Virus record (IMG/VR): IMGVR_UViG_3300015607_002611
Coordinates: 9,143 to 73,142 of that record
DNA from: a virus
Strand: one strand, 5' to 3'
DNA length: 64,000 nucleotides
Below the pieces are notes generated by a model, which was not told the origin of the DNA, made no database searches, and saw only the letters and a program-made list of their open reading frames with translations. Within the stretch, counting starts at the first letter, position 1. The number at the start of each line of letters is the position of its first letter. The position numbers were made by a program, and so were the translations under genes. Below are positions 1 to 35,750 of this stretch, piece by piece.

Positions 1-87
1 CATAAATTAAGTATAAAACAAATGCGAAGAGTTGCTTATGGCAAAATAGAAAACTATAATGGATGGATATGTAAATATGGAAAATAA
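1..87 (+). CDS. 3' end of an upstream gene (partial, reading frame 1 open from window start to TAA at 85-87)
   Basis: Frame-1 open from position 1 to the stop at 85-87. This fits the tight-packing pattern, since the next ATG (77) overlaps the stop. No function is inferable. Confidence 0.2.
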   Translation, partial: HKLSIKQMRRVAYGKIENYNGWICKYGK

Positions 88-281
88 TATATTAGGATTT
101 ATGGCTCGTGATGATTGGAGACGTCATGACTGGGAAGGTTTTAATCAACCTAAATAGAAAGAAATGACGGTCAAAGTAAAGGAACATACAGCGGAATTGA
201 ATTAGCAAAAAAAACATAATAAACCCTTTAAAATAATCGCAGTTTAGTTGAAACAAGTTTGACTAAACTAATATAAGACCT

Positions 282-1334
282 ATGGATTATAGTATTAAAA
301 GCCTTAGTGCAAAAAACGCTGCGGAAGCATATACAAAATTAACAGAATTAGTAAATACTCAAGGCGAATTCATTGAGTCGAGAAATGAAGCAACCCTTGA
401 AGTTTTAAACGTAGCTATTGAAATTGAAAATCCAAGAGATAGGATTATTAACATCAGTAATTTTAAATTACCATTTATATTACAAGAGACTTTCGATATT
501 TTAAATAATAATCAACCTAGAGCTATTCACTCTAAACAAATGCTTGAGAAAACGATGGGTAATTCAAGTGACCCAATGTTCTTTGGGAATGAATTAAGAC
601 AAGCATTATCTAGATGGTCATTAGTTAAAGTACGTGATAGATTTATAAAAGATAAGAATACTCGTAAAGCAGTATTAAGTCTAGGTAATAGAAGAAATGC
701 AAAACATACACCTTGTATGATTTATTCTCATTTTATTATTAGAGATAATAAGTTTTACATGACTGCAGAGACTAGAGGTACTGCAGTTTCAATGGGATTT
801 GTAAATGATGTTTTCGTATTAACATTAGTACAAGAAATAATTTATGGATGGTTACTTGAATATTATCCTGAATTAGAATTAGGAACATTCCTATATAAAA
901 CAGTTTCATTACACGAATATGTTGATGCTGTTAAGTCAATTGATGCTGTATCTACAGTTTCTAATATATTAACTAATGAACTTAAAGGTATTACACACGG
1001 TAATGAAACAGTATATAGTAAATCTTATATTCCAACATGGGACCAAACATTACAACCATATAATATTAATATAATTCCAATTAAATTAAATTATAAAGAA
1101 TATTTACAAGACATGGGTATTTTATATCATTATGTCGATGAATATATGAAGTCTACTGAGTATGAAGATTTAGATAAAGGTGATATCACATTAACTACTG
1201 ATTTACTTAAACCAGATAGAAAATTATTTAATAGTGAATATTTTTATAATTGGGCAAATGTTCTATATTATAAAGCATGTGGGTCAGCAACAGATGAACC
1301 AATTTATTTAAAGATATTTACGGAAGGAGTTTAA
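282..1334 (+). CDS. Thymidylate-synthase-fold pyrimidine C5-transferase, uracil-type (Asn at specificity position): divergent ThyA or dUMP hydroxymethylase
   Basis: TS-family motifs are present. 'RKAVLSLGNRR' aligns with RRxIxSAWNP. 'HTPCMIYSHF' aligns with PCH-QFYV and carries the catalytic Cys. 'TRGTAVSMGFVNDVF' aligns with QRSxDxxLGxPFN and carries Asn. 'TVSLHEY' is the C-terminal HxY. The protein is too divergent for a housekeeping ThyA. Confidence 0.6.
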   Translation: MDYSIKSLSAKNAAEAYTKLTELVNTQGEFIESRNEATLEVLNVAIEIENPRDRIINISNFKLPFILQETFDILNNNQPRAIHSKQMLEKTMGNSSDPMFFGNELRQALSRWSLVKVRDRFIKDKNTRKAVLSLGNRRNAKHTPCMIYSHFIIRDNKFYMTAETRGTAVSMGFVNDVFVLTLVQEIIYGWLLEYYPELELGTFLYKTVSLHEYVDAVKSIDAVSTVSNILTNELKGITHGNETVYSKSYIPTWDQTLQPYNINIIPIKLNYKEYLQDMGILYHYVDEYMKSTEYEDLDKGDITLTTDLLKPDRKLFNSEYFYNWANVLYYKACGSATDEPIYLKIFTEGV

Positions 1335-1335
1335 T

Positions 1336-2181
1336 ATGAGAGCAACAATGAGTAAAACCTATTTTAAAGAAGTAGGTGGTAAAGAAGTATTTTGTAAATT
1401 AAAACCATGTAATGATTTTGATACACGTACTGTAATGTTTCAGGCTAAAATAGCTGAAACTATTGGTGGTATTTTTTCGATTAATAAATTCAAAGGAATT
1501 AATTTAATACAGGCTGATAAGTCTAGTTATTACGAAATTCAATTTGAAAAATTAAGCCAAATGCCATGGGAACCAACTGAAGCTAATATGAAGCTCATTG
1601 GCACGTCTATGGCACATATTCACAATTATGCTCATTTTAATAAAGATTTAATAAATCTGTCTGTTAAATCCGAGACGTATTCTGATATGAATAAGTGGAT
1701 TACATTAAAGAAAGAATTTGAAACAGCCTATACAGTTAGAAACGATATATTTGAACAGATTAAACGTTTCAATTTAAAGCAACCTAGAATACCATTACAC
1801 AGAGATTTTAAACTTCATAATATTGTTTATGATGGCACGAAATATAGTTTAATTGACTTTGATTTTGCTGCAGCAGATTTCGTAAGTATCGAGATTATGG
1901 GGTTTATTGTTGATGTAATTCCTTATGGTATGGAGTTTGTTAAAACATTCTTTGAAGCATATCATAAAACTATTGATATCCCAGTTGACCAATCATCTTA
2001 TGTAACAGATTACTTAAATTATCTTTGTACTAATACATTTCCGTATTATTTAAAAGATAAACTTTCAGTTGAAAACATGACTGAATTAGTAGAGTATAGA
2101 AATAAATGTTTAAATACTATTTATTCTAATAAAGACGAACTTAATAAAATAATAGAAGAAACACAATATGTTAGCAATTAA
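1336..2181 (+). CDS. Protein-kinase-like fold kinase (APH/choline-kinase type), substrate unknown
   Basis: Catalytic loop 'HRDFKLHNIVYD' (HxDxxxxN) and metal-binding 'LIDFDFAA' (DFG-like). It sits between two TS-fold genes with ATGA/TAATG coupling. Confidence 0.55.
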   Translation: MRATMSKTYFKEVGGKEVFCKLKPCNDFDTRTVMFQAKIAETIGGIFSINKFKGINLIQADKSSYYEIQFEKLSQMPWEPTEANMKLIGTSMAHIHNYAHFNKDLINLSVKSETYSDMNKWITLKKEFETAYTVRNDIFEQIKRFNLKQPRIPLHRDFKLHNIVYDGTKYSLIDFDFAAADFVSIEIMGFIVDVIPYGMEFVKTFFEAYHKTIDIPVDQSSYVTDYLNYLCTNTFPYYLKDKLSVENMTELVEYRNKCLNTIYSNKDELNKIIEETQYVSN

Positions 2182-3037
2182 AGGAGAAACATTTTCAGAT
2201 GTTTATATTAGAAGTTTAGGATATTTAACAAAACATCCGCAATATATTAGTTCTCCTAGGGGAATGAAAGTTAAAGAAACATTAAATGTCGGATTAGTAA
2301 TTAAAGACCCTAGATTTTGTTTATATCATAATCCACGTAGAAGTTCACAATATAAATACATTGCTGCTGAATTACTTTGGTACTTTACTGGACGTTCAGA
2401 CTTAGGATTTATTGAAAATTATTCAAGCTTCTGGCGCCAAATAGCAAACGATGATAAAAGTATTAATTCAGCTTATGGTAATTTAATCTTTAAACAACAA
2501 AATGAACATGGTGTATCTCAATGGCAATGGGCTATGAGGTCATTGATTCAAGACAAAGATACTCGTCAAGCAGTAATGATGTTTAATAAGCCACAATATC
2601 AATATGGTAATAATAAAGATTTTATCTGTACATTAAGTGGAATATTTGCTATTAGAAATAATAGATTGAATTTAACTATCACTATGCGTTCTAATGATGT
2701 AGTTCTTGGGACACCAACTGACGTTGCATTCTTTTGCATGTTACTACAGCAAGCTCACAAATTACTTAAAGAATATTATCCTGATTTAAAATTAGGTAAA
2801 TATACCCACATTGCCAATTCATATCATTTATATGAAAGACATTTCGATTTAGTAGATGATATGCTTAAAACATATGCAGTATGTGAACGAATGCCAAGTA
2901 TCGGAATTGATTTAATTGATATCAATGGAAATCCATCAGCTGAGTTAATTCATTTAATGAATGTTGTTGAATTCGGTGGAGAATATGAGAGTACTGACCC
3001 ATTATTATCTTGGGTTTATGAAAAATTAACTAAATAA
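2168..3037 (+). CDS. Deoxycytidylate hydroxymethylase-like (TS fold, Asp at pyrimidine-specificity position)
   Basis: 'ELLWYFTGRSDL' aligns with ELLWFLxG. 'TRQAVMMFNKP' aligns with SRRxIxSAWNP. 'KDFICTLSG' carries the catalytic Cys. 'RSNDVVLGTPTDVAFF' aligns with RSxDxxLGxPFN but has Asp in place of Asn, as in T4 gp42. 'NSYHLYERH' is present. Confidence 0.7.
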   Translation: MLAIKGETFSDVYIRSLGYLTKHPQYISSPRGMKVKETLNVGLVIKDPRFCLYHNPRRSSQYKYIAAELLWYFTGRSDLGFIENYSSFWRQIANDDKSINSAYGNLIFKQQNEHGVSQWQWAMRSLIQDKDTRQAVMMFNKPQYQYGNNKDFICTLSGIFAIRNNRLNLTITMRSNDVVLGTPTDVAFFCMLLQQAHKLLKEYYPDLKLGKYTHIANSYHLYERHFDLVDDMLKTYAVCERMPSIGIDLIDINGNPSAELIHLMNVVEFGGEYESTDPLLSWVYEKLTK

Positions 3038-3038
3038 A

Positions 3039-3575
3039 ATGGAACCTAAAATTTTTATAACATCAGATACATTCTTCGGCAGAAGAAATATAATCGAAAT
3101 AGCAAATCGTCCATTCAAAGATTTAGATGAAATGCATGCTGTAATGGTTAATAACTGGAATAGTGTTGTTACTGATAATGATATAGTTTATCATTTAGGT
3201 AACTTTGCATGGACACCAACTGTTGCTGATGAAATGCTTAAAGTTTTAAATGGTAATATTAAATTCATTTTAGGAGAATATGATAATGCATTAGAAGAAG
3301 TATTTGAGTATTATGATGGAGTTGAGATTATGCCATATGATATCTTTAAAGACTATGATAACAAAATAGTTTTATCGCATTGGCCTTTAGACACATGGCC
3401 TGGAAAGGCAGAAGGTATATATCATTTTCATGGGAATACATTAAAAGAATTAAAAACAGATTTAACTAAAATGAAGCGTGTTAATATTTGTTGTGACAAT
3501 TGGAATTATGCACCTCAAGAAGCTAAAGTTCTTTTCGACATTTTCAAAGATTTTGAAGAAAAAACGCCTGCTTAA
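3039..3575 (+). CDS. Calcineurin-like metallophosphoesterase
   Basis: 'ITSDTFFG' (DxH-like), 'HLGNF' and 'HFHGNT' fit MPP-superfamily motifs. The call is weak. Confidence 0.4.
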   Translation: MEPKIFITSDTFFGRRNIIEIANRPFKDLDEMHAVMVNNWNSVVTDNDIVYHLGNFAWTPTVADEMLKVLNGNIKFILGEYDNALEEVFEYYDGVEIMPYDIFKDYDNKIVLSHWPLDTWPGKAEGIYHFHGNTLKELKTDLTKMKRVNICCDNWNYAPQEAKVLFDIFKDFEEKTPA

Positions 3576-3576
3576 C

Positions 3577-3607
3577 TTTTTTATATCAAAAAAATAAGTT
3601 ATATTTA
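3577..3607 (+). promoter_or_regulatory. Candidate promoter: degenerate -33 (TTTT) and perfect -7 TATATTTA, 4 nt before ATG of sigma-like gene
   Basis: TATATTTAC at 3600-3608 is identical to the -7 element of the recurring promoter motif. The upstream element is TTTT rather than TTTG. Confidence 0.35.
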
Positions 3608-3611
3608 CTAC

Positions 3612-4409
3612 ATGACAGGAAAAAATATGACAGAGAGTTACAATTCAATTGCCCTAGATTTTAAAAACACGAAATCTGACATTGCTTTTACAAAGCTATA
3701 CCAAAAAATGAGACCGAGCCTAAAGAATTACATTCGCAATATGACTAAAGATGCGGATGTTACTGAAGATTTATTAGCTCGTACATTTATTAAAATTTAT
3801 GAAAAAATTGACGGTTACGATACGACTTTTTCAATTACAACTTGGGCATATACAATTGCCAAACGCGAATGCTTACGATGGATTAAAAGAGAAAGAAATC
3901 CAAGAGTGTCATTATCTTACTTGTCAGAATTTGGTTCTGAAGTAACATCTGATGATGATACAAATAAAGTTTCTAAAAACGGTTTAAATTTTGAAGACGA
4001 AGATTATAAACCAGAAGAAAAGTTTTTAGAAGAAGATAATTTATTACAATATCGATATGATACTGCAACTGAATTAATCAAATCTTTAAAGCCAATGTAT
4101 CGTGATATTCTAGTTGATATCATGTTTAATAAAATGAAGTATAAAGACGTGGCTTTTAAATATGACGATGAGTTACAAAAAGCTAAACTTAAATATGATA
4201 GAGAAATTAGCAAGACTGATGACGAAGAAAAGCTTGAAAAAATACAAAAAGAATACAATGCAGTATTTAAAAAGTCATTACAACGTGTTAAAAATAGAGT
4301 AAGACGCGGTAAATCTTTAGTTGCAAGTGAATTAGAAGAACTTTTCCCAAACATTAAAATTGACATGGATATCAGAGAGGATTCTGAAAAAGAATCCGTT
4401 GATATATAA
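3612..4409 (+). CDS. RNA polymerase sigma factor-like protein (sigma-70 region 2 / region 4-like)
   Basis: 'FSITTWAYTIAKRECLRWIKRE' matches the sigma70_r2 signature (FxxWLxxIAxN). A C-terminal helix-rich segment is followed by a Lys/Glu-rich tail. Confidence 0.45.
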   Translation: MTGKNMTESYNSIALDFKNTKSDIAFTKLYQKMRPSLKNYIRNMTKDADVTEDLLARTFIKIYEKIDGYDTTFSITTWAYTIAKRECLRWIKRERNPRVSLSYLSEFGSEVTSDDDTNKVSKNGLNFEDEDYKPEEKFLEEDNLLQYRYDTATELIKSLKPMYRDILVDIMFNKMKYKDVAFKYDDELQKAKLKYDREISKTDDEEKLEKIQKEYNAVFKKSLQRVKNRVRRGKSLVASELEELFPNIKIDMDIREDSEKESVDI

Positions 4410-4412
4410 TAC

Positions 4413-4880
4413 ATGTCAAGAATACAATTAAACAGATATCCTATTTTAACTGACCCTCTGATAAATTCTAAGGGTCAGTTTCAGGGTCAATTAACTTTAG
4501 AAAATACCTTTGTTTTAAATTTTTTTAGAAATGAAAATTTTATTAAATATGATAAAAACGAGAACGCTTGGTTTTTAGAATTAGATGAACTTCTAATAAG
4601 TACTCCAGGTGCTGCTGGTCCACCTGGCCCACAAGGACCTATAGGTCCTGAAGGTCCTGAAGGTCCACAAGGTATTCCAGGCCCTGCAGGCGATGCATCT
4701 GTATTAAATGCTGTTGTGTATGAAACATTAGATGGTAATGAAACACCTGCAACTGCAACTGAACCATATGATTTATTAAGAAGAAATTTAGATAATGATG
4801 GTTATGATTTTGTAAATTTTTCACAAATGGTTGCAGATATACAAATATTCAATGATACTCATTGTTTTAATCAATTTTAA
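4413..4880 (+). CDS. Collagen-like repeat protein (putative fibre/structural)
   Basis: A run of 9-10 Gly-X-Y triplets, '[29 protein letters not shown]'. Confidence 0.6.
4608..4694 (+). repeat. G-X-Y collagen-like triplet repeat (coding)
   Basis: GGTxCT/CCAGGx periodicity, encoding G66-D94 of the ORF. Confidence 0.8.
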
Positions 4881-4883
4881 ATT

Positions 4884-5432
4884 ATGGCAAAAAATAGAAT
4901 AGCATATTATACACAAGAAGGAAAGATACATTCAGTAAATGTTAATTTTGTAAATTACTCAAATACATTTCCAGTAAATACACTTACTAATATATTTGAT
5001 AATGTTATAATAAATGCAGGGACAGAAGGTAGTAAATTATATGATATTAAATTAAATAATTCTATACCATTTACTTCAGGGACTATAAATGTCTCTGCAG
5101 GTTCTAGTTTTTATTTTAGTTTAAAACATACTTATACGAATCCATTAGGCGGTTCACCTATTATAACTTTATTAAATACGGTTGAATTTAATACTACAAA
5201 TGCATTAAGTGCACTTAATAAATTAATATCTACTTGGTCTGATTCAATATTAGCACAAAAAGACCAAAGAGGTAATGATTATATTAATTTACCCCCAGGT
5301 ACAGTATTGTCTTTATCATGTGATGTTGTAGCTACTACAACTCCTGCATCTACTACTAATTATAATCTTGGAAAGTTAAACGATTCAGACCCGAGAGCAA
5401 TTAAAATAATAGCATATACTGAAGAATATTAA
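4884..5432 (+). CDS. Hypothetical Asn/Ser/Thr-rich protein (possible fibre-associated)
   Basis: Composition only. Adjacent to the collagen-like gene. Confidence 0.3.
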   Translation: MAKNRIAYYTQEGKIHSVNVNFVNYSNTFPVNTLTNIFDNVIINAGTEGSKLYDIKLNNSIPFTSGTINVSAGSSFYFSLKHTYTNPLGGSPIITLLNTVEFNTTNALSALNKLISTWSDSILAQKDQRGNDYINLPPGTVLSLSCDVVATTTPASTTNYNLGKLNDSDPRAIKIIAYTEEY

Positions 5433-5434
5433 TT

Positions 5435-5788
5435 ATGGCAAAGAATACAACTAAATATATTACTAAGAGTTCTAATATTACATCTAATTTTTTCAGTAAT
5501 ACTAGTACTAAGATATACAGTGCTGGTAAAAATGGGACTAAAATTTTAAATATAACATCCTTATTTACAAGTACAGGTACATTAAATTTAAAAGTAAGCG
5601 ATGGTATAAGTGATTGGGTAATTATGTCAATGAATAGTCCAAGTAATAATCAAGATATATTAGCACTTACTCATTTTCCAGTAGATGAAAACGGTCAAAA
5701 ATATTTCTTACTGGAATCAGGTTGGAGTATAATGGCTTCAATAACTTCTGGAAGTGGTAGTTTATTAATTTACGGTGAAGATTTTTAA
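5435..5788 (+). CDS. Hypothetical Ser/Thr/Asn-rich protein
   Basis: Composition only. Confidence 0.3.
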   Translation: MAKNTTKYITKSSNITSNFFSNTSTKIYSAGKNGTKILNITSLFTSTGTLNLKVSDGISDWVIMSMNSPSNNQDILALTHFPVDENGQKYFLLESGWSIMASITSGSGSLLIYGEDF

Positions 5789-5841
5789 TTATCTCGTAAA
5801 CAATTATATATAATCTGATATAATATAAAATTCATGAATAT

Positions 5842-6300
5842 ATGTATTGGATTAAACTAATAAAAGACATTAGACTTTGGATGCGATTTGCTAAAGTCGC
5901 TAAACAAAATCGCGAATACTTAGAGAAACATAATCTAAGAGTTGATAAATTGGGTAGAATTTACACAGTTATCAATTTACCTGAAGAAATTCGTAAAACA
6001 AATGAATACATGCATGAAGCATGGGTACTTCAAAATCTTAAACCATTTACTCAAGTTTTATTAGAAATTGGCGTTGCTGACTATGCTTACCCTGAAGTAA
6101 GTAGAATTGAAGAAAATGATGCAGATGCTTATTTAGTGGTTATGTACCCAGAAGCAGAAGCTGTAAGTTTCCGTAAAATTATTTGGAATTTGTTTTTATG
6201 GACAGCCGGATTCTTTGTATTAAAAACTATCTACAAATTAATTGTAGCAAGTCCAGTAATTATGGAATATTTACATAAAGCAATAGATTTTATATTTTAA
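5842..6300 (+). CDS. Hypothetical protein with C-terminal transmembrane segment
   Basis: Hydrophobic 'IIWNLFLWTAGFFVLKTIYKLIVASPVIM'. Confidence 0.35.
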   Translation: MYWIKLIKDIRLWMRFAKVAKQNREYLEKHNLRVDKLGRIYTVINLPEEIRKTNEYMHEAWVLQNLKPFTQVLLEIGVADYAYPEVSRIEENDADAYLVVMYPEAEAVSFRKIIWNLFLWTAGFFVLKTIYKLIVASPVIMEYLHKAIDFIF

Positions 6301-6301
6301 T

Positions 6302-7057
6302 ATGAGCGTAACATTAGAACAAATAGAAAGAGTTCAAATTAACGGTAAACGTTGGTATCAAGTAAAGCAAGGTGAGGAAATAATTGGAACATTTCCTAGT
6401 GTTACTAGTGTACTTGGTTCAACTAAAGATAAAACAGCTTTAAATAATTGGGCACAAAGAATTGGTCAAGAAGCTGCAGATAAGGTTGGTAAAGACTCAA
6501 CGGATAGGGGAACTGTAATGCATAGATTATGTGAGTTATATTTAAACTTACCTATTGACCTTTCAAATAAAGATAGATTTAATGAAACATTAGAATTAGC
6601 AAGAACTGACGAAGAGATTATTAAGTTCGACCCAAGGGCTATAATAATGGGAGCTATCTTATTTAATAATTTCTATTCAACTGGTTGTTTTGATAGAGTA
6701 AAACAAGTAATAGCACAAGAACAATTCTTATGGTGTAAAGCAGGTGGTGGATTTGCTGGAACAGTTGATAATTTCTCTTTATTAGATGATGGTGCACGTA
6801 AAGTAGTCGATTTTAAAACTGCTAAGAAAGCTAAAGCTGAAGCGTGGATTGAAGACTATAAAATGCAAGCTTCAGCATATTGTATTGCTATTTGGGAAAG
6901 AACTGGTATTAAACCAGATGGTGCTGAAATTTGGATAAGTAATGAAGTCGATAGATTCCCACAATGCTTTATGTTAAATTGGAATGATGTAACTAAATAT
7001 TTTAAATTATTTACAGAGAGATTAAATGCATTCCATGCTGCAAATCCTTTAAAATAA
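6302..7057 (+). CDS. PD-(D/E)XK nuclease, RecB/Cas4/lambda-exonuclease-like
   Basis: 'GTVDNFSLLDDG' (motif II D), 'VVDFKTAK' (D-x-K) and 'QASAYCIA' (the QxxxY motif typical of the RecB family). Confidence 0.6.
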   Translation: MSVTLEQIERVQINGKRWYQVKQGEEIIGTFPSVTSVLGSTKDKTALNNWAQRIGQEAADKVGKDSTDRGTVMHRLCELYLNLPIDLSNKDRFNETLELARTDEEIIKFDPRAIIMGAILFNNFYSTGCFDRVKQVIAQEQFLWCKAGGGFAGTVDNFSLLDDGARKVVDFKTAKKAKAEAWIEDYKMQASAYCIAIWERTGIKPDGAEIWISNEVDRFPQCFMLNWNDVTKYFKLFTERLNAFHAANPLK

Positions 7058-7091
7058 TTAATCAATATATACTACAAATAACATTTGTAAT

Positions 7092-7325
7092 ATGAAACTT
7101 AAAGGTTTTAAGCAGTTTATAGCTGAAAAACAAACAGACCCTGATTTAGTCGATAAGATGAAAGAATATTCAGACGGTCAAGGTGATACTTGCCCAAGAT
7201 GTGGTAAATCACAAGGTGAATGTGTATGTCAAGACAGAGACTATGGTAGTACTGTTAATTTACATAGATTAGGAAAAGGAAAAGTAACAAAACAAGAAAG
7301 TAATTTTAAAAACGAAAACGAGTAA
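7092..7325 (+). CDS. Small zinc-ribbon protein
   Basis: 'CPRCGKSQGECVC'. Confidence 0.35.
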   Translation: MKLKGFKQFIAEKQTDPDLVDKMKEYSDGQGDTCPRCGKSQGECVCQDRDYGSTVNLHRLGKGKVTKQESNFKNENE

Positions 7326-7327
7326 AA

Positions 7328-7645
7328 ATGGAAAAGTTTATTACATTAATTAAAAAATGGCAAAATGTTATCTTAGTAGGTTTATTTGTATTTTTATTTT
7401 TAGGACAATGTTCTACGAATAGAACTATGGATAAAATGAGAAAAGATAATGTAAAATTAACTCAAAGTATTGATAGTCTTAAAACTACTATTGAGAATTA
7501 TAAGCCAATCACTAATGAAGATTTAAAAATCGAAGGACTTAAAGCTGAGAAGAGAATGATACAGTCTGTTGATAGAAAAATCTTAGACGTTAACAGACAG
7601 GCTGAAATCGATAAGGAAATAGAAAATTTATCAAAAAAGAAATAA
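7328..7645 (+). CDS. Membrane-anchored coiled-coil protein
   Basis: N-terminal TM 'VILVGLFVFLFLGQC' followed by heptad-like charged repeats. Confidence 0.35.
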   Translation: MEKFITLIKKWQNVILVGLFVFLFLGQCSTNRTMDKMRKDNVKLTQSIDSLKTTIENYKPITNEDLKIEGLKAEKRMIQSVDRKILDVNRQAEIDKEIENLSKKK

Positions 7646-7646
7646 G

Positions 7647-8525
7647 ATGGTATACTTAACAGCCATTTGGAATTTTATAAAAAACCCTAAAAACACGAGG
7701 TTACTTGTGTTTGCGGGGGTAGTGATATTAGCTCTTTTATTTTTTAGACAATGTAATAAAGCTAATGATTTAGAACGCCAATTAGAACAACAAAAAACTG
7801 AAACAGTTCGCTTATTAAATAATGAAGAAGCTAAGAATGCTGAATTAAAGAATTATAAATTAAGTGATTCTACTAATCGTGCAATAATTCAAGGTTATCA
7901 ATTAACACAAGAAGAACTTAAAAATGAATTCAAATCATTAACAGAAGGATTTGATGACCTTAAAAAGAAAACAGCACTTGCATTAGCTAAAGGGACTATT
8001 TATTCTAAAGAAACTGTTTATATTAATACAACAGTTAAAATAGATTCAGTAGGCGTAGAACATATTACAGGAACTGATACAATGAGAGTTGATGAAGATA
8101 ATTTTAGAAAAATAACATTCGACACTCCTATTACTACTAAATATTTTAATAAGAAAGACTCAACTGAATTTGATTTTAAGAAGAGTTCTTTATTTTCAGA
8201 AACATATCCTGGTAAAACTAAAGTTACACTTGAACAAAGTATAGGATTAAAAGTAGGTTTATTCCAAGATAAAAAAGATAAGAAAGTTTATATAGTTGCT
8301 CAGACTAAATATCCAGGTGTGACTTTTACTAAATTACAAGGTGCTGATATTATGGCTGACCCTGATTCTAGAAAAGTAACAAGAGAATTTAGAAAAACAT
8401 GGGGCATCGGATTTAACTTTGGATATGGAGCAGCACTTGATTTAAAAAATAATAATTTTGTTATAGGTCCTTATTTAGGTGTAGGTTTACATTATACTCC
8501 AAAATTCCTTCAATGGGGTAAATAA
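7647..8525 (+). CDS. Membrane-anchored protein with coiled-coil and beta-rich C-terminus
   Basis: N-terminal TM 'LLVFAGVVILALLFF'. The C-terminus has a glycine/aromatic beta pattern. Confidence 0.3.
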   Translation: MVYLTAIWNFIKNPKNTRLLVFAGVVILALLFFRQCNKANDLERQLEQQKTETVRLLNNEEAKNAELKNYKLSDSTNRAIIQGYQLTQEELKNEFKSLTEGFDDLKKKTALALAKGTIYSKETVYINTTVKIDSVGVEHITGTDTMRVDEDNFRKITFDTPITTKYFNKKDSTEFDFKKSSLFSETYPGKTKVTLEQSIGLKVGLFQDKKDKKVYIVAQTKYPGVTFTKLQGADIMADPDSRKVTREFRKTWGIGFNFGYGAALDLKNNNFVIGPYLGVGLHYTPKFLQWGK

Positions 8526-8536
8526 AATAAATAGAA

Positions 8537-9466
8537 ATGAACAAAGATAAAGTTGTAAGAATAAGTATAATTTCAATTTTCGTAGCATTGTATGCAATCG
8601 CTAGTATCGTGTCTACGATTCACGTTATTGACTTTTTTGCATTAACAAACCCAAGATGGTTGGCAATAAGTTTAGCTGTTGCTTTTGAAATAGGTGCAAT
8701 GGCTTCATTGGCAGCTATTATTATTTTAGATAAAACATCAAGAACATTAGTTTGGTTCTTATTTATATTATTAACATTAATGCAAATGATGGGTAATGCC
8801 TATTATGCTTATGATAATGCTAAAGATTATGAATCATGGATGGAACTTTTCGCTTTAAATGAAGAAGAACCAATTTATCAAAAAAGAATATTAGCTATTA
8901 TATCAGGAGCTATATTACCAATTGTAGCTTTAGGTTTTATTAAATCATTAATTGATTATATTAGACCTGCACAAAAAGAATCTAATTTAGTTATAGAAAA
9001 TGAAGGTAAAGTTGGTCTAGATGAATCTCAACCTACTGCTAAATTAGAAGTAGTAGAACCTGAAAGTAAAACTGTGGCGAATGAAATACTTGAAGTACAA
9101 GAGATGGAAAAACCAGACGGTACAGCTATTAAATCTTCATTAGATTATCTTGACGAAGAAGCTATTTATAATGAAGTAATGAATGCCCCTCAGGCAGAAT
9201 CGGATTCAATTGAGTCAGTTAAGAATGATAATATAAGTGATACAATAGAAGAAGTAGCTGAACTGTCTAAAACTGACGAAGATATTAAACTAGACGTACC
9301 ATTTGAAGATGCTAAATTACAAGCTATTAAAGAAGTTAGAAACGAAGAAGAAAGTAAAGTAGCAGAAATTAAAAAGCCAAGAACTCATGTTGTTGAGGAA
9401 CCTGGTACAGGTGGTGTAAGTAGAAACTTTGGACCGCCAGATATAAATAATGGAGTAATACAATAA
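8537..9466 (+). CDS. Polytopic membrane protein with acidic C-terminal tail
   Basis: At least four hydrophobic helices in the first ~150 aa, followed by a D/E-rich tail. Confidence 0.35.
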   Translation: MNKDKVVRISIISIFVALYAIASIVSTIHVIDFFALTNPRWLAISLAVAFEIGAMASLAAIIILDKTSRTLVWFLFILLTLMQMMGNAYYAYDNAKDYESWMELFALNEEEPIYQKRILAIISGAILPIVALGFIKSLIDYIRPAQKESNLVIENEGKVGLDESQPTAKLEVVEPESKTVANEILEVQEMEKPDGTAIKSSLDYLDEEAIYNEVMNAPQAESDSIESVKNDNISDTIEEVAELSKTDEDIKLDVPFEDAKLQAIKEVRNEEESKVAEIKKPRTHVVEEPGTGGVSRNFGPPDINNGVIQ

Positions 9467-10690: not shown

Positions 10691-11089
10691 ATGTTTAAAA
10701 TTTACACAGACGAAAAATTACAATCAACAATTAATGAACTTTTCAGAGATGTATTTTCTGAAACTTTTAAAAGTCCAATCTTTAACTCAGATGTTCGCTA
10801 TGAAGTTATAGAAAAGACAGATTCATATTTAATAGAAATGCTTTTACCTGGTTACAAAAAGGAAAACATTAAAATTGATTTAAATGATTCAGTGTTAAAA
10901 GTATCTTATGAGTCTAGTGAAGAAGATAAGTATAGTAAATACATCAAAGCTTTTTCTAAGTCCTTTAGAATAAGTGCAGACCTTAGCCAAGAAGACATCA
11001 CAGCTAAGATGGAAGATGGAGTTCTTAAAATTTCAGTTCCTAAATTAAAGGAAGAAGTTAAAGAATCCAGAACAATAGAAATACAATAA
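10691..11089 (+). CDS. Small heat-shock protein (Hsp20/alpha-crystallin family)
   Basis: 132 aa with an alpha-crystallin domain pattern and C-terminal 'GVLKISVPK'. Isolated between two terminators. Confidence 0.7.
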   Translation: MFKIYTDEKLQSTINELFRDVFSETFKSPIFNSDVRYEVIEKTDSYLIEMLLPGYKKENIKIDLNDSVLKVSYESSEEDKYSKYIKAFSKSFRISADLSQEDITAKMEDGVLKISVPKLKEEVKESRTIEIQ

Positions 11090-11132: not shown

Positions 11133-11136
11133 ATGT

Positions 11137-11149
11137 GATATATAAAAAT
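11137..11149 (+). promoter_or_regulatory. Candidate 'GATATATAAAAAT' promoter-like motif immediately upstream of ATG 11150
   Basis: The same motif class occurs upstream of the homing-endonuclease genes. It resembles T4 late TATAAATA. Confidence 0.3.
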
Positions 11150-11728
11150 ATGAATTCATTAGAAAAGTTTTGTGAAAATAAAAGAATAGCAATTGTAGGT
11201 AATTCATCTAAAATATTAAGCCATAATTATGGTGATATTATAGATGCACATGATATAGTTGTAAGAATTAATCATGCTCCTAAATATATCTCTAAATACC
11301 CAAAGAATGTAGGGACTAAAACTACTATAATGTCTTATGGTCTAAGTAGATTAGATATTGCTAGAGATATTTCCAAAATTTGTAATCCTCAATATAATTT
11401 ATTTTTAATAAGATGTAATGGTGAAATAAAAGATTATTCCCAATATTCCTTATTTAAAAATCCTTTTCATGGAAGCATTGAAGAATATAAAAAACTTAAA
11501 TCTAAATTTGATGTATTTAAACCTTCGACAGGTTCAGTTACTATAAATTATTTTATTAACAATATTAATTTTAGTAAACTTAATTTATTTGGATTTGATT
11601 TCTTTACTAGTTCTTCACCTAATAGAAAAAATGAATTCCACTCGTATATTTATAGAGACCATAGCGCAGTATTAGAACAAAAGTATGTTCAGAGTGTTTT
11701 AAATGAAAATGTAGTTATATTTTACTGA
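11150..11728 (+). CDS. Sialyltransferase-like glycosyltransferase (GT29 L- and S-motifs)
   Basis: L-motif 'IAIVGNSSKILSHNYGDIIDAHDIVVRINHAP' and S-motif 'KPSTGSVTINYFINNINFSKLNLFGFDFF'. The track start at 11135 is a GTG, so the ATG at 11150 is preferred. Confidence 0.65.
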   Translation: MNSLEKFCENKRIAIVGNSSKILSHNYGDIIDAHDIVVRINHAPKYISKYPKNVGTKTTIMSYGLSRLDIARDISKICNPQYNLFLIRCNGEIKDYSQYSLFKNPFHGSIEEYKKLKSKFDVFKPSTGSVTINYFINNINFSKLNLFGFDFFTSSSPNRKNEFHSYIYRDHSAVLEQKYVQSVLNENVVIFY

Positions 11729-11777
11729 AACAATTTGCCAATGATAGATATAAAAACAATAAAGTGTTTAAATTATA

Positions 11778-13307
11778 ATGTCACAAAAGAAACGAATAAT
11801 AAAATATTTAAAACCTGATATAGTCAAAAGTGTCGCCAACATTAATAAGAATATGTCTAGACCAGCCGTTCCTAAAAAGACAGTATCTATACCTACAAAT
11901 TATACAGAAATTCCGTTACCTAATTTAATCAATAATTTTACGAATAAGCCTAAAAATAATAGAGTTTTTATTATAGGTGGAGGTTCTTCATTAAGTGGAT
12001 TTGATTTTTCAATATTAAAAGACGAAGATATTATTGCAGTTAATAAATCAATTGAATACGTTAATTATGCAAAATATTTTGTTACAATGGATTATACATT
12101 TTTTACAAATCACCACAAATTAACAAATGCTGACTTTAGTATAATTAATAATAAGGCAGAACATACATATTTCATTATAAATACTGAACATAGTTATATT
12201 AAAAATATAAATGGTGTATATACTGATACTAGATTTAATTTAAAATATACAGCGCTTGAAAAATTTGAAGGTGTAATTAGAAGTCCTAAGACATACGACT
12301 CAAGTAGAGGATTTGGAAGTGATATACATACATTTACACACGGTAATAATAGTGGTTATTGTGCTTTACAATTAGCAATTGCTTTAGGTTATGAAGAAAT
12401 ATATTTATTAGGATATGACCTAAATATAAGTTCAAGTAAAACACATTTCCATAATGGCTATAAACAAGATGTTTCTAGATTTTCTAGGAACTTAATTGAA
12501 TATAGAACTATATTTTCTAAATCATTACAATTATATAAAGGCCCTAGTAAAATATACAGTTGCTCAAACAATAGTTATCTTAATACTTTTATAAAATATG
12601 TAGATATTAAAACTGTATTAAATGTACCAGTACAACGGCAAATAATTAGACCTGAAAATATAATTGTACCTGATAGTATTCCACCTATTAAAACAAGTGA
12701 AATGAATGGAGATTTAAGAGACCTTATTGTTATTGGTTATTATACAATTAATACTCCTTATGAAGCTGAAGCTCAGGGATTAATTAAATCTTGTAGTAAA
12801 TTAAATTTAAGACAAGATATTATAGGTGTACCAACGTTTGGTAATTGGCAATCAAATACTAGATTTAAAGCTAAATTTATGCTAGAGATGTTAGAAAAAT
12901 ATCCTGGTTCTAAATTAGTATATGTAGATGTTGATGCTGTAATCCATTCAAGATTAAATTTATTTAAAGATTATGATTATGATATTTCTGTTAGGTATCA
13001 AGATTTTAGATGGCGTAAAAATGAGTGTTTAAGCGGTACTATATTTATAAAATCAAATGAGAAAACCATTAAATTATGTAAACGTTGGATGGAAATAAAT
13101 GATTCTGAGGGTTCTAATGCTAAAACATTAGAACAATGGAATTTAGATAAGGCAATACAAGAGGGTATTAAAGACTATGGTTTAACATTTAAAAATTTAC
13201 CACCTGAATATACATTCATTTTTGATTCAATGAAGGCAATATATCCAAATGTTAAACCTGTAATTGAACATTTCCAAGCTAGTAGAAGATTTAGAAATAA
13301 AGTATAA
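11778..13307 (+). CDS. Two-domain glycosyltransferase: N-terminal CstII/GT42-like (DUF115-like) sialyltransferase-fold domain plus C-terminal DxD GT-A domain
   Basis: N-terminal 'NRVFIIGGGSSLSGFDFSILKDEDIIAVNKSIEY' resembles CstII 'VIIAGNGPSLKEIDYS...DVFRCNQFY'. C-terminal 'LVYVDVDAV' is a DxD motif. Confidence 0.5.
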   Translation: MSQKKRIIKYLKPDIVKSVANINKNMSRPAVPKKTVSIPTNYTEIPLPNLINNFTNKPKNNRVFIIGGGSSLSGFDFSILKDEDIIAVNKSIEYVNYAKYFVTMDYTFFTNHHKLTNADFSIINNKAEHTYFIINTEHSYIKNINGVYTDTRFNLKYTALEKFEGVIRSPKTYDSSRGFGSDIHTFTHGNNSGYCALQLAIALGYEEIYLLGYDLNISSSKTHFHNGYKQDVSRFSRNLIEYRTIFSKSLQLYKGPSKIYSCSNNSYLNTFIKYVDIKTVLNVPVQRQIIRPENIIVPDSIPPIKTSEMNGDLRDLIVIGYYTINTPYEAEAQGLIKSCSKLNLRQDIIGVPTFGNWQSNTRFKAKFMLEMLEKYPGSKLVYVDVDAVIHSRLNLFKDYDYDISVRYQDFRWRKNECLSGTIFIKSNEKTIKLCKRWMEINDSEGSNAKTLEQWNLDKAIQEGIKDYGLTFKNLPPEYTFIFDSMKAIYPNVKPVIEHFQASRRFRNKV

Positions 13308-13308
13308 T

Positions 13309-17497: not shown

Positions 17498-17498
17498 A

Positions 17499-17909: not shown

Positions 17910-17910
17910 T

Positions 17911-18459: not shown

Positions 18460-18460
18460 A

Positions 18461-21549: not shown

Positions 21550-21550
21550 T

Positions 21551-22330: not shown

Positions 22331-22331
22331 T

Positions 22332-24315: not shown

Positions 24316-24350
24316 TATTCTGGTTTATAGGTATTTCCGGCAATGAATCA

Positions 24351-24359: not shown

Positions 24360-24376
24360 TAAAATAATTTGATTAT

Positions 24377-25231
24377 ATGTACATAAGAAAGTGCCCAACT
24401 TGTCCACGTGAAACTAAATTTAAAAGTAAGAAAGCTTATAATAGAGCAATTGAATCAAACAGAAGCTGTAAACAATGTAGTATAAGAAATAATCTTTCTG
24501 GGTATAGAAATGATGTTTCAAATGGTTTAAAGCCTAATGGATTTTTAAATAAAACACATACAGAAGAATTTAAAAACAGGCTAAGAATAGAAAGAATAGG
24601 TAAAAAAGTTCATAATAGTAAATCTAAATCTAAAATTAGTAAAGCTTTATCCGGTGAAAACAATCCAATGTTTGGTAAATCTTTCTATGATATTTGGGTT
24701 GAAAAATATGGAAAAGAAGTTGCAGATAAAAAGTTAAAAAAATTTAAGTTTAAAATTAGTAAAGCAACTGAAGGTAAAAACAACCCAATGTTCGGTAAAC
24801 CTTCGCCCCAAGGAAGTGGTAACGGTTGGAAAGGTTGGTACAAAGGAACGTTCTTTAGAAGTTTACACGAGCTATCTTTCTTGATTAATTATATAGAAAG
24901 ATTTAAAATGCCATTTGAATCAGGTGAACAAGCTAAATGGGCAATTGAATATAGAAAACCTACAGGTGAAATTGGTACATATTTTTCAGACTATGTTATC
25001 AATGGGAAATATATGGTCGAAATAAAACCTGAAAAACTTAAAAGTAGCCCAACTAATAAAGCTAAACGCAAAGCAGCTGAAAAGTTTTGTAAAGCTAAAG
25101 GTTTAAAATATAAAATGATATCGCCGATATTATTAACTGAAACAAATATCCTATTTTTACATAAAAAGAATATAATTAAATTTACAGACATATATGAAAA
25201 ACGATTCAGAAAGCAATATACATTTTCATAA
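24377..25231 (+). CDS. Homing-endonuclease-like protein: N-terminal zinc finger, NUMOD3-type repeats, C-terminal PD-(D/E)XK-like motif
   Basis: 'CPTCPRE...CKQC', repeated 'ENNPMFGKS' and 'KNNPMFGKP' (NUMOD3-like), and 'FSDYVINGKYMVEIKPEK' (D...ExK). Confidence 0.45.
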   Translation: MYIRKCPTCPRETKFKSKKAYNRAIESNRSCKQCSIRNNLSGYRNDVSNGLKPNGFLNKTHTEEFKNRLRIERIGKKVHNSKSKSKISKALSGENNPMFGKSFYDIWVEKYGKEVADKKLKKFKFKISKATEGKNNPMFGKPSPQGSGNGWKGWYKGTFFRSLHELSFLINYIERFKMPFESGEQAKWAIEYRKPTGEIGTYFSDYVINGKYMVEIKPEKLKSSPTNKAKRKAAEKFCKAKGLKYKMISPILLTETNILFLHKKNIIKFTDIYEKRFRKQYTFS

Positions 25232-25853
25232 TTTAAGTGTTACCCGCGAGATGCGAGAAAAATTAAATGGTCATAAACCGTGTATAATTTGGTTCACTGG
25301 GTACAGCGGAAGTGGAAAATCCACAATAGCTAATATTTTAGATACTTATCTACATAAAGGTGGCTATCACACTTATATCTTAGACGGCGATAATATTCGC
25401 TCAGGTTTAAACAAGAATTTAGGTTTCAGTGACGATGACCGTAAAGAAAACATTCGCCGTATTAGTGAAGTAGCTAAATTATTTGCTGATTCTGGTACAA
25501 TTGTATTAACAGCATTCATTTCACCTTTTATTGAAGATAGACAAATTGCACGTGATATTCTTTCAAAAGATTTCAATTTTATTGAAGTTTATGTTGAAGC
25601 AGATTTAGAAACATGTGAGGCGCGTGACCCTAAAGGTCTTTACAAAAAAGCAAGAGCTGGTCAAATCAAAAACTTTACTGGAATTGATAGTCCTTATGAA
25701 GCTCCTATAAATCCAGAAATAACATTAAAAACTTCCCAGTATAGTCCAGACTTAAGCGCATATACAGTTCTTCATTATTTATACGATAATAATATTTTAC
25801 CTTTAGGACTAAAGCAAGATGCTGTTAATAATTCTAAAACATTAAGTCACTAA
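25194..25853 (+). CDS. cysC: Adenylyl-sulfate (APS) kinase
   Basis: 'IIWFTGYSGSGKSTIA', 'LDGDNIRSGLNKNLGFSDDDRKENIRR', 'VLTAFISP' and 'CEARDPKGLYKKARAGQIKNFTGIDSPYEAP' are near-identical in pattern to E. coli CysC. Confidence 0.93.
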   Translation: MKNDSESNIHFHNLSVTREMREKLNGHKPCIIWFTGYSGSGKSTIANILDTYLHKGGYHTYILDGDNIRSGLNKNLGFSDDDRKENIRRISEVAKLFADSGTIVLTAFISPFIEDRQIARDILSKDFNFIEVYVEADLETCEARDPKGLYKKARAGQIKNFTGIDSPYEAPINPEITLKTSQYSPDLSAYTVLHYLYDNNILPLGLKQDAVNNSKTLSH

Positions 25854-34772: not shown

Positions 34773-35750
34773 ATGAAGCCAATTAACTTAAAATATAATA
34801 AATCGTACGGTGCTTTTCTTTTAGAAAAGAAAATGAATGAAAATGAAGATACTGATTTATTTAAAATTTATTTAGCAGTAAGACGTTCTAGTGGCCATAG
34901 ATGGTGGACTTATAAAGGATTCGCAGCAGATAATTATTTTATTCAAATTACTGAAGAAAATATCGATAAAATTAAAGTTGATGATAGTCTTCCAATTTTA
35001 ACATATTCAACTGATATTATTAATAGATTACTTGATGCAGGTAAAATTAAAAAGAGTAATATTATTAACAATCCAAAATATGTTAAATTATCAGGTTCTA
35101 AAAAAGACTTTCATGAATTTATAGGTGAAGATGAAAATTTACCTAAAACAGTATTCACTCAAAAAGAAGCAATGAATTTAAACTTCCCTGTCATTGCAAA
35201 ACCTACAGCAGGTCATTCAGGATTAGGTATTCAAGTTTTTCAAAATGCTGATGAATTAAAAGAATCAGATGAAAATAAATTTGATTTATATTCTGAATTC
35301 GTAGATAAGAAAGAAGAACATAGATTTATTAATTATAAAGGTAAACCTATCTTTTGGATGGAAAGAGTTCCAATGAATGATAAGGCTAAAAATGGGAAAG
35401 GTAAAGCTGAAGAAAAAACAATGTTCCAATATATTAAAAGAAATGTAGACGATATCCCTGAAGATATGTTAAACGTTCTTAAAAAATATTGTGATAAATT
35501 AAAAGATCTTCCTTATATTTGTTTTGATATTATGAGAGACCAAGATGATAATATTTTTATTATAGAATCAAACTCTCAGCCGGGTGTTCCTTTTGATTCT
35601 ACTATTGAAATCTATAAAGTATTATTTGAGGATTTTTATGGTAGACCTGTAGATGAAAAGACTTCAAAAGTTTTAGATGAATACGCTAAGAAACTTATAA
35701 AGAAAACTGTATCTAAGGATGATGGTAGATTTAAAGATGAATCGAAATAA
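34773..35750 (+). CDS. ATP-grasp ligase (RimK/glutathione-synthetase-like)
   Basis: 'FPVIAKPTAGHSGLGIQVF' and C-terminal 'ICFDIMRDQDDNIFIIESNSQPGV'. Confidence 0.5.
   Translation: MKPINLKYNKSYGAFLLEKKMNENEDTDLFKIYLAVRRSSGHRWWTYKGFAADNYFIQITEENIDKIKVDDSLPILTYSTDIINRLLDAGKIKKSNIINNPKYVKLSGSKKDFHEFIGEDENLPKTVFTQKEAMNLNFPVIAKPTAGHSGLGIQVFQNADELKESDENKFDLYSEFVDKKEEHRFINYKGKPIFWMERVPMNDKAKNGKGKAEEKTMFQYIKRNVDDIPEDMLNVLKKYCDKLKDLPYICFDIMRDQDDNIFIIESNSQPGVPFDSTIEIYKVLFEDFYGRPVDEKTSKVLDEYAKKLIKKTVSKDDGRFKDESK

Follow-up and report, generated by a model that had tools for sequence, protein, structure and literature searches.

What do two genes of the thymidylate synthase (TS) fold, with a kinase gene between them, do for the virus that carries them? 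We addressed this question for a locus at the start of a 64,000-nt stretch of viral DNA, positions 9,143 to 73,142 of IMGVR_UViG_3300015607_002611 (hereafter the window, in whose numbering coordinates are given). We call the two TS-fold genes TS1 and TS2, and number TS-fold residues as in E. coli ThyA unless a protein's own numbering is given. Our analysis points to a cluster that probably hypermodifies cytosine. The locus could quite plausibly represent the downstream (3') half of a pyrimidine-hypermodification cluster that is conserved in large, uncultured phages of low guanine-cytosine (GC) content with a T4-type baseplate gene. Its four genes are as follows:

TS1, 282..1334, plus strand, TS-fold protein, 350 amino acids (aa)
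Kinase, 1336..2181, plus strand, APH-type, 281 aa
TS2, 2168..3037, plus strand, predicted TS-fold enzyme of the dCMP hydroxymethylase type, 289 aa
Metallophosphoesterase homologue, 3039..3575, plus strand, 178 aa

A first-pass annotation of this DNA had described two TS-fold genes coupled through a kinase and followed by a metallophosphoesterase, and the sequence does contain four tightly packed plus-strand open reading frames (ORFs) at these positions. A gap of 1 nt separates the TS1 stop codon from the ATG of the kinase gene, ahead of which an AAGGAG lies within the 3' end of TS1. The kinase and TS2 genes overlap by 14 nt, and another 1-nt gap lies between TS2 and the phosphoesterase homologue. 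The kinase appears to be translationally coupled to both TS1 and TS2. Promoter and terminator scans were uninformative, with promoter-like sites rarer than in shuffled sequences.

TS2 matched Pfam Thymidylat_synt (PF00303) with an E-value of 3e-21 (76.2 bits against a cutoff of 24.3 bits), and its best relatives in the PDB were MilA (9e-26) and T4 dCMP hydroxymethylase (7e-22). Experimentally anchored diagnostic positions are available for TS-fold enzymes (Lee et al., NAR 2026; PMC13326640): C146 is the nucleophile; position 177 is N for dUMP and D for dCMP; position 143 is L where the product is methylated and D or E where it is hydroxymethylated; and position 169 is D in folate-dependent enzymes and N in flavin-dependent 5-hydroxy-dCMP synthases. 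The sugar is read by Ser167 and Arg126' for deoxyribose, and by Ala and Lys for ribose (Zhao et al.; PMC5175136). TS2 has D143, C146, S167, D169, D177, R126, Y94 and W80. On every testable criterion it is predicted to be a dCMP hydroxymethylase of the T4 gp42/MilA type, and the earlier assignment of TS2 as cytosine-type from its Asp at the ThyA N177 position was borne out by our alignments.

The Pfam Thymidylat_synt search that had been suggested for both genes succeeded for TS2 and gave no match for TS1; TS1 matched no other Pfam family either. It did match PHROG thymidylate-synthase families (5e-16), and hhalign recovered the TS fold with a probability of 99.95% (E = 2e-37). An AlphaFold model of TS1 (pLDDT 89.5, pTM 0.87) had MilA as its best Foldseek match (1.6e-14), and the extra C-terminal helical domain was included in that match. 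Next came the flavin-dependent dCMP hydroxylase of phage HY126 (AfhB, 1e-12) and T4 dCMP hydroxymethylase (dCH); ordinary thymidylate synthases ranked lower.

The base-recognition residue of TS1 was located by four independent alignments: phmmer to MilA; a MAFFT alignment of 12 sequences that included E. coli ThyA, T4 gp42 and RB69 gp48, taken from annotated records; pairwise BLASTP of TS1 against TS2 (E = 2e-13); and profile-profile comparison with hhalign. In all four, the Asp of the TS1 motif GFVND aligned with T4 Asp179, MilA Asp186, ThyA N177 and the corresponding Asp of TS2. The Asn of the motif, which had been taken for the pyrimidine-recognition residue, is ruled out for that role by these alignments: it occupies position 176, and the dCMP hydroxymethylase T4 gp42 reads GFRND in the same place. 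Position 177 is Asp in 51 of 51 full-length members of the TS1 family, so the Asn that uracil-specific enzymes (ThyA, dUMP hydroxymethylase) carry there is absent. Because it has Asp177, TS1 is predicted to be cytosine-type, like TS2. Both genes do encode TS-fold proteins, as first supposed; a uracil/cytosine pair, however, is not supported, given the invariant Asp of TS1.

The active site of TS1 divides into a conserved and an altered part. The fold and the catalytic and phosphate-binding residues of a folate-dependent synthase or hydroxymethylase are present (C146, E58, R21, R126, R166, H207 and Y/F209, together with D177), and C146, H143, P145, R126, R166, D177 and H207 are invariant in all 51 members. 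The folate site, however, is changed throughout: W80 is replaced by E, the segment bearing W83 is deleted, Y94 has become a variable Ser and S167 is G. Position 169 is A (36 members), E (12) or S (3) and never Asp or Asn; all 51 members have His at position 143, and 48 of the 51 have Gly at position 167. Among 19 folate-dependent relatives, E58, Y94, S167 and D169 are invariant, W80, D143 and D177 are nearly so, and W83 is one or the other. These changes make folate-dependent hydroxymethyl transfer by TS1 unlikely, and the idea that both TS-fold enzymes are hydroxymethylases fails at this point, since TS1 lacks W80, W83, Y94, S167 and D169. The combination of D169N and Glu143 that marks the flavin-dependent 5-hydroxy-dCMP synthases is also absent. 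By its residues, TS1 appears to belong neither to the folate-dependent hydroxymethylases nor to the D169N hydroxylases, and is best described as a predicted cytosine-type, Cys-bearing, TS-fold nucleotide binder without the folate-site residues.

The family is small. When 1.84 billion cluster representatives were searched exhaustively with HMMER, only 7 proteins reached E <= 1e-30 before the scores collapsed. The D-C-S-D-D signature of hydroxymethylases was found in 123 of the next 149 relatives, with an intermediate H-C-S-D-D in 6, and because so many of the next-nearest relatives bear that signature, TS1 seems to derive from the hydroxymethylase clade. We did not find the family in 185,579 cellular genomes, where generic TS matches had only 22-26% identity, nor any close relative among 50,697 deposited phage records, where all matches were below 30% identity. 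TS1 thus looks like a virus-only offshoot of the cytosine hydroxymethylase clade with a remodelled cofactor pocket.

The kinase scored 32.5 bits (1e-7) with Pfam APH (PF01636), for which the cutoff is 23.2 bits. Residues H155-R156-D157, N162 and D174-F175-D176, which make up the HxD...N loop and the DFD motif of an APH/choline-kinase-like phosphotransferase, are invariant in 16 orthologues, in agreement with its first description as protein-kinase-like and not a P-loop enzyme. The best Foldseek matches to an AlphaFold2 model (pLDDT 86.6) were AmiN (amicoumacin kinase), aminopropanol kinase, type-II homoserine kinase and NahK (N-acetylhexosamine kinase), followed by PsiK, APH(3'), APH(9), choline kinase and FN3K, at 12-15% identity; there were no protein kinases among the top matches. 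Close homologues are rare, with 9 in 5.8 billion clusters, plus the orthologues at loci that carry TS1 (TS1-type loci), and no match in the deposited phage records. All nine loci that retrieved those 9 homologues are themselves TS1-type. In 11 of 11 TS1-type loci the kinase gene lies directly downstream of TS1, which supports the view that the arrangement is not due to chance. We take the protein to be an APH/choline-kinase-type small-molecule hydroxyl kinase, judging by its motifs and predicted fold. This family does not fix which molecule is phosphorylated, and we propose the enzyme as a candidate 5-hydroxymethyl-dCMP kinase.

The window cuts the module, and the tightest partners of TS1 lie upstream of position 1. 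JGI contig L016 is 100% identical to window positions 1-9000 and reaches 8.7 kb further upstream; therefore the upstream cassette genes belong to the same genome. From 5' to 3', they are a guanylate-kinase-like deoxynucleoside monophosphate (dNMP) kinase, a 209-aa protein of unknown function, a 168-aa P-loop kinase that weakly resembles thymidylate kinases and deoxynucleoside kinases (TMPK-like), a 409-aa sulfotransferase-like protein (L016 5807-7036), a 317-aa protein of the DDAH/arginine-deiminase (ADI) fold and a GIY-YIG gene, the end of which opens the window:

GIY-YIG homing endonuclease gene, 3' end, 1..87, plus strand; the L016 gene is at 8027-8752 and matches PF22945 (LEM-3_GIY-YIG)

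This gene intrudes between the DDAH-like gene and TS1. It is absent in L005, L011 and L026, where the two abut, and it is no component of the pathway. An 8-bp inverted repeat with a 13-nt loop (AGTTTAGT ... ACTAAACT, window 241-270) ends 12 nt 5' of the TS1 start codon; it could form a hairpin, placed after the homing endonuclease gene, with a role in regulation or processing.

The block of P-loop kinase, sulfotransferase-like, DDAH-like, TS1 and APH-type kinase genes is contiguous in every TS1-type locus that reaches far enough upstream, with the exception of L018. It is also present in the divergent loci L013 and L014, without TS2 downstream, while the L015 contig ends at the DDAH-like gene. 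Elsewhere the block is followed by TS2, the phosphoesterase homologue and a sigma factor. In L018 (9433-10386) and L026 (12640), a gene for an ATP-grasp ligase stands between TS2 and the phosphoesterase homologue. Its counterpart in the present genome is likely a tailoring enzyme that has moved 31 kb away:

ATP-grasp ligase, 34773..35750, plus strand; phmmer 5e-70 to L018 9433-10386, with a weak Pfam Dala_Dala_lig_C match

The cassette adjoins MazG in L018 and, in another context, genes for dUTPase and a family-B DNA polymerase (PolB). Across loci, the neighbourhood is one of DNA-precursor genes (dNMP kinase, PD-(D/E)XK exonuclease, MazG, dUTPase and PolB), and no MazG, dUTPase or dCMP deaminase was found within the 64-kb window itself. 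The DDAH-like and sulfotransferase-like proteins had no match in the deposited phage records. Other genes were seen near the cassette in single loci: an Fpg/Nei-type DNA glycosylase in L013 (4167-4988); in L018 (961-1431 and 4992-5327), the MazG gene and a nucleoside-deoxyribosyltransferase-like gene adjoining the DDAH-like gene; and in L001 (5763-7452), an FAD/NAD(P)-binding oxidoreductase and a YAcAr SLOG protein just upstream of TS1.

Huge phage LR756500.1 (462 kb) keeps the order guanylate kinase ... TS2 ... phosphoesterase-sigma factor ... PD-(D/E)XK exonuclease, and has none of the five cassette genes. Since this hydroxymethyl-dC backbone exists without the cassette, TS1 and the kinase are part of an accessory cassette that has been inserted into it. 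The phosphoesterase homologue and the sigma factor are backbone neighbours of TS2, not members of the cassette, and the latter is probably a conserved neighbour and not a pathway enzyme:

Sigma-70 region-2 factor, 3612..4409, plus strand; Pfam Sigma70_r2 2e-13, and synteny

A metallophosphoesterase had been said to follow TS2. ORF 3039-3575 is indeed a homologue of the calcineurin-like family, without a Pfam match but with matches to PHROG 547 'phosphoesterase' (1.7e-31; the family occurs in 1,214 phage records) and PDB entry 1xm7 (1.3e-9). Its canonical metal-ligand motifs DxH, GD and GNHD, however, are replaced by SDTFF, HLGNF and G[E/D]xD (GEYD here) in all 6 orthologues. This strongly conserved protein may be a pseudoenzyme or have an altered chemistry.

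A search with the DDAH-like protein showed that its family tracks the TS1 contigs, with a few divergent members in addition. In three loci from unrelated lineages (L023, L024 and L025), a sulfotransferase-like gene (1e-75 to 1e-117) and a DDAH-like gene (4e-47 to 6e-63) directly follow a gene for an amino-acid:DNA transferase (AADT; ADDT domain, PF18724, 49-58 bits against a cutoff of 26.2 bits). The GC content of these loci is 41-56% where computed, and that of the present genome is 29%. L024 and L025 go on to a 5-hydroxymethyldeoxyuridine (5-hmdU) DNA kinase (HMUDK; domains HMUDK_HMUD1 and HMUDK_hel, 2.4e-45), so that the sulfotransferase-like and DDAH-like genes stand between transferase and kinase (L024 6749-16078, L025 6799-12901). 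The same two loci also encode an HD 5'-deoxynucleotidase, a hydroxymethylase-type TS homologue and a UDG-PolA polymerase; position 177 of the L024 TS homologue is Ala, with an Asn adjacent. Thymidine hypermodification clusters of the same architecture have been characterised in M6, ViI and PaMx11 (PMC8989533). The clusters that combine AADT with the sulfotransferase-like and DDAH-like genes imply an undescribed thymine adduct. In L023, a 188-kb phage, an adenylosuccinate-synthetase homologue (3096-4169, 1.5e-53) lies 2.6 kb upstream of the AADT set; it is perhaps an enzyme of the PurZ type that serves 2-aminoadenine synthesis, in which case one genome would hold two base modifications.

The two cluster types exclude each other's central enzymes. 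In a single presence/absence computation, TS1 and the APH-type kinase were found together in all 11 TS1-type loci, none of which had AADT or HMUDK, while AADT was present in 3 of 3 other loci (with HMUDK in 2) and never with TS1 or the APH-type kinase. What they share is the tailoring pair. A DDAH-like gene is present in all cassette-bearing loci of both types, and a sulfotransferase-like gene is missing only from L018 and from L015, whose contig is truncated. The Glu/Asp-His-Cys triad of the former and the SRxGS[S/T] loop of the latter are invariant across both cluster types.

As in phage pyrimidine hypermodification clusters, a TS-type hydroxymethylase, nucleotide kinases and tailoring genes here form a conserved block in the replication region. 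The module is nonetheless not a member of the HMUDK/AADT systems, as both defining domains were looked for and are absent. The ADDT domain was found in none of the 11 TS1-type loci; the APH-type kinase has a different fold from the P-loop HMUDK_HMUD1 and HMUDK_hel domains; and no cassette member matched the Pfam HMUDK families. We also considered the cassette P-loop kinase together with the 209-aa protein as a split 5-HMUDK, and rejected this pairing: only the Walker A motif of the P-loop kinase aligns with HMUDK, and the comparison with the helical domain gave a probability of 0.05%. Since the cassette P-loop kinase is not an HMUDK, the APH-type enzyme would be the sole candidate base kinase, which fits a nucleotide-level route. 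A full-text literature search yielded no paper tying a sulfotransferase or a DDAH-like enzyme to AADT/HMUDK, and none tying an APH-type kinase to a TS homologue. Two suggestions of the first-pass annotation are thus supported in spirit: that the arrangement is an undescribed DNA-base hypermodification module, and that the kinase is the best candidate for activating the 5-hydroxymethyl group (by the comparison of cassette and AADT clusters).

We put forward the following route, in which the specific roles of the APH-type kinase and TS1 are tentative. TS2 would first convert dCMP to 5-hydroxymethyl-dCMP (hm-dCMP) with methylene-tetrahydrofolate, a step that rests on its complete residue signature. 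The APH-type kinase would then put a phosphate on the 5-CH2OH of hm-dCMP. In the third step, Cys146 of TS1 would add at C6, expel the phosphate and regenerate the exocyclic methylene, which would amount to reversing the final hydroxymethylase step, with phosphate as the good leaving group. An amine or amino-acid nucleophile would add instead of water, His143 taking the place of the water-positioning Asp/Glu, and the folate pocket would be replaced by family-specific invariant Arg and His residues of TS1 (R54, R80, H83, R106, R137, H142, H150 and R154 in its own numbering) that we propose form an anion-binding site. The sulfotransferase-like, DDAH-like and ATP-grasp enzymes would prepare the donor or tailor the adduct; given the DDAH/ADI fold, the appended group is possibly a guanidino compound. 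Lastly, the TMPK-like and guanylate-kinase-like kinases would take the modified dCMP towards the triphosphate for incorporation.

By analogy, we propose that, for cytosine, the APH-type kinase and TS1 stand in for the 5-hmdU DNA kinase and AADT without being their orthologues, and that they probably do so at the level of the mononucleotide. A nucleotide-level route is suggested because the hydroxymethylase descent of TS1, its loss of folate residues, its coupling to the kinase and the extra nucleoside monophosphate (NMP)-type kinase fit it. The whole would be a pre-replicative, kinase-dependent hypermodification of cytosine, in which a folate-less TS-fold 'methylene transferase' swaps phosphate for an amino-acid-type nucleophile. 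We regard this full reading as possible and hold it with some reserve.

Several observations weigh against it. We know of no APH-fold enzyme that phosphorylates a nucleobase substituent, and of no TS-fold enzyme that uses a phosphorylated substrate. The shared sulfotransferase and DDAH pair presumably serves a DNA-level transferase in the AADT clusters, which sits uneasily with a nucleotide-level route unless the pair prepares the donor. The kinase and the sulfotransferase would be partly redundant if both merely activate a hydroxyl. No TS2 is present within the contigs of L013-L015, from which it appears that TS1 may be independent of a neighbouring hydroxymethylase. The sugar preference of TS1 is also ambiguous, since by the MilA-derived criteria its discriminating residues are mixed (Gly167 but Arg126).

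A rival is a post-replicative route, which we consider rather unlikely. TS2 and the dNMP kinases would put 5-hydroxymethylcytosine into DNA as in T4, and the APH-type kinase, or the sulfotransferase, would activate that base in the polymer. TS1 would have a separate task at the nucleotide level; it might, for instance, produce another C5-modified dCMP without folate, by analogy with the flavin-dependent 5-hydroxy-dCMP synthases. All characterised kinase-dependent hypermodifications act on DNA (PMC8989533), and elsewhere the shared tailoring pair goes with a DNA-level transferase. TS-fold enzymes with an altered position 169 have switched cofactor (PMC13326640), in L001 the gene for the FAD/NAD(P)-binding oxidoreductase lies two genes ahead of TS1, and L013-L015 have TS1 without a nearby TS2. 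However, the substitution step would be left without a candidate transferase, as no AADT is present, and the adjacency and coupling of TS1 and the APH-type kinase would be unexplained. TS1 also lacks both the D169N signature and the Tyr94 that the hydroxylases keep, and the flavoprotein gene is found in one lineage only.

It is less probable still that the module leaves DNA alone and instead makes or destroys a cytosine-nucleotide-derived small molecule (an antimetabolite, a signal or an anti-defence compound), on the lines of the mildiomycin (Streptomyces MilA) or bacimethrin (BcmA/BcmD) pathways, in which tailoring that includes phosphorylation of the hydroxymethyl group comes after a CMP hydroxymethylase of the TS fold. 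MilA is the best solved relative of both TS1 and TS2, and TS1 has Gly at the ribose-discriminating position 167. Cytosine nucleoside antibiotics bear arginine-derived groups, and the deoxyribosyltransferase-like gene beside the DDAH-like gene in L018 and the SLOG-family gene beside TS1 in L001 could be read in the same sense. On the other hand, Ser167 and Arg126 of TS2 are of the deoxy type, and the cluster is accompanied by dNMP kinases, dUTPase, DNA polymerase and MazG. The tailoring pair recurs in AADT/HMUDK DNA-modification clusters, and the TS1 family is absent from the cellular genomes.

We think it very unlikely that TS1 is a non-catalytic regulatory or scaffold subunit that binds dCMP or hm-dCMP, for instance as a heterodimer with TS2. 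Loss of a cofactor site is typical of pseudoenzymes, and TS enzymes are obligate dimers in which Arg126'/127' is contributed across the interface. Nevertheless, Cys146, Glu58, His143 and many family-specific polar residues of TS1 are invariant among sequences down to 46% identity, and TS1 accompanies the APH-type kinase and the DDAH-like gene without TS2 in L013-L015. The dual model of the first-pass annotation, in which TS1 acts as a dUMP hydroxymethylase and TS2 as a dCMP hydroxymethylase so that both T and C are replaced, draws on the presence of two TS-fold paralogues in one operon and the Asn of the TS1 'VND', but is scarcely tenable when that Asn lies at 176, as in the 'ND' of T4 gp42, when both enzymes have Asp177 and when TS1 is without the residues of the folate site on which hydroxymethyl transfer depends.

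Beyond the module, the window is a region of accessory genes. A glycan/sulfation island (11135-25853) encodes GT29-like, nucleotide-diphospho-sugar, GT2, GT25 and GT10-like transferases, Sulfotransfer_2, methyltransferases, a DegT aminotransferase, GDP-mannose 4,6-dehydratase, a KpsF-like SIS isomerase, KDO-8-P synthase, CMP-KDO synthetase and APS kinase. Its products might be used to decorate virions, the surface of the host or, conceivably, DNA. The last gene is of interest as a source of phosphoadenosine phosphosulfate (PAPS):

APS kinase (makes PAPS), 25194..25853, plus strand; Pfam APS_kinase 6e-70

It is speculative that it feeds PAPS to the sulfotransferase-like enzyme of the cassette. 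At 27950-30489, a full-length argininosuccinate synthase (2e-53, 3e-57) stands beside an argininosuccinate lyase (1.5e-39), a pair that is unusual for a phage. A link between this ArgG/ArgH pair and a guanidino donor or an arginine supply for the DDAH/ADI-fold enzyme is likewise speculative, and a scan of viral contigs with the window ArgG for co-occurrence with the module found no relatives.

The Nudix gene (37630-38121) and HAD-like genes downstream had been cited in support of the module as agents that exclude canonical dNTPs. We rejected them as partners: they lie 33-52 kb from it, and the HAD gene at 55022 sits in an RNA-repair set. That set (43546-55495) comprises Rnl2-like (43546, 47192) and Rnl1-like (45457) RNA ligases, a Thg1-like tRNA-His guanylyltransferase, a PolB-exonuclease-like gene, an RlaP nucleotidyltransferase, a canonical Metallophos and HAD_SAK_2. 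At least 6 GIY-YIG/NUMOD/TnsA-like homing-endonuclease genes are scattered through the window (1-87, 24377-25231, 27262-27861 on the minus strand, 33329-34075, 36914-37633 and 52421-53125). Other features are a collagen-like G-x-y run in ORF 4413-4880, an HSP20 small heat-shock protein at 10691-11089 (4e-16), and, at 30553-32855, a gene for a membrane protein with an SPFH/Band-7 gene (3e-25) after it. A tRNA scan found none.

Hypermodified bases are a main means by which phages evade restriction enzymes and CRISPR nucleases, and the enzymes that make them become tools for DNA chemistry and epigenetic sequencing. To our knowledge, all known kinase-activated hypermodifications are of thymine and take place on DNA, and the known cytosine hypermodifications are glycosylations. 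If the proposed reading is correct, the module would be a kinase-dependent pathway for cytosine and a convergent, non-orthologous counterpart of 5-HMUDK and AADT. It would bring a third chemistry to the TS fold, in addition to those with folate and flavin, as well as the first APH-type kinase directed at a nucleobase and a tailoring pair in common with AADT clusters. The cytosine adduct, and equally the thymine adduct of the AADT-sulfotransferase-DDAH clusters, would be undescribed and possibly guanidino- or ureido-bearing or sulfated.

Among known systems, T4 gp42 and MilA have the same full signature as TS2 and are its best PDB matches. TS1 is like them in fold, Cys146, Glu58, Asp177 and the phosphate-binding arginines, and like MilA also in the C-terminal helical domain. 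It differs in His143, Gly167 and Ala/Glu/Ser169, in lacking Tyr94 and Trp80, and in the deletion of the Trp83 segment. The flavin-dependent 5-hydroxy-dCMP synthases (RB69 gp48, DLP3 gp80 and HY126 AfhB; PDB 9iqu/9iqc), of which AfhB is the second-best structural match to TS1, share the TS fold, Asp177 and Cys146 with it. They gave up folate chemistry upon a change at position 169 and occur in hypermodification clusters with dedicated nucleotide kinases (PMC13326640). They have Asn169 and Glu143 and keep Tyr94, whereas TS1 has A/E/S169 and His143 and no Tyr94; their partners are arabinosyl or glycosyl transferases, and those of TS1 are the kinase, DDAH-like and sulfotransferase-like proteins.

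For the proposed kinase step, bacimethrin biosynthesis (BcmA-BcmD) and ThiD offer a precedent, in which a CMP hydroxymethylase of the TS fold acts first and the 5-hydroxymethyl group of a 4-aminopyrimidine is then phosphorylated. BcmA is included in the alignment of PMC5175136, and PMC8989533 names ThiD as chemically closest to 5-HMUDK. ThiD-type kinases are of the ribokinase fold, act on a free base and belong to cellular metabolism, and we found no sequence relationship between them and the APH-type kinase. The likeness of the latter is to the APH/choline kinase/type-II homoserine kinase group (AmiN, aminopropanol kinase, NahK, PsiK and FN3K), with which it shares core and fold at the low identities given above.

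The systems with 5-HMUDK and AADT or aGPT-Pplase (M6, ViI, PaMx11, SP10 and PhiW-14; PMC8989533) follow the same logic as the pathway proposed here: a hydroxymethylase, a kinase acting on the 5-CH2OH, substitution by an amine, and tailoring. They work on uracil/thymine with a P-loop plus helical kinase and a glycosylase-like transferase, while the TS1 module would work on cytosine with an APH-fold kinase and a TS-fold candidate. Their substrate is DNA, and that of the TS1 module is probably a mononucleotide. The general kind of pathway, in which a phage hypermodifies a pyrimidine by way of a TS-type hydroxymethylase, is thus known; what would be new is the base (cytosine by a kinase route), the folds of both key enzymes, the probable level of the substrate and the tailoring pair.

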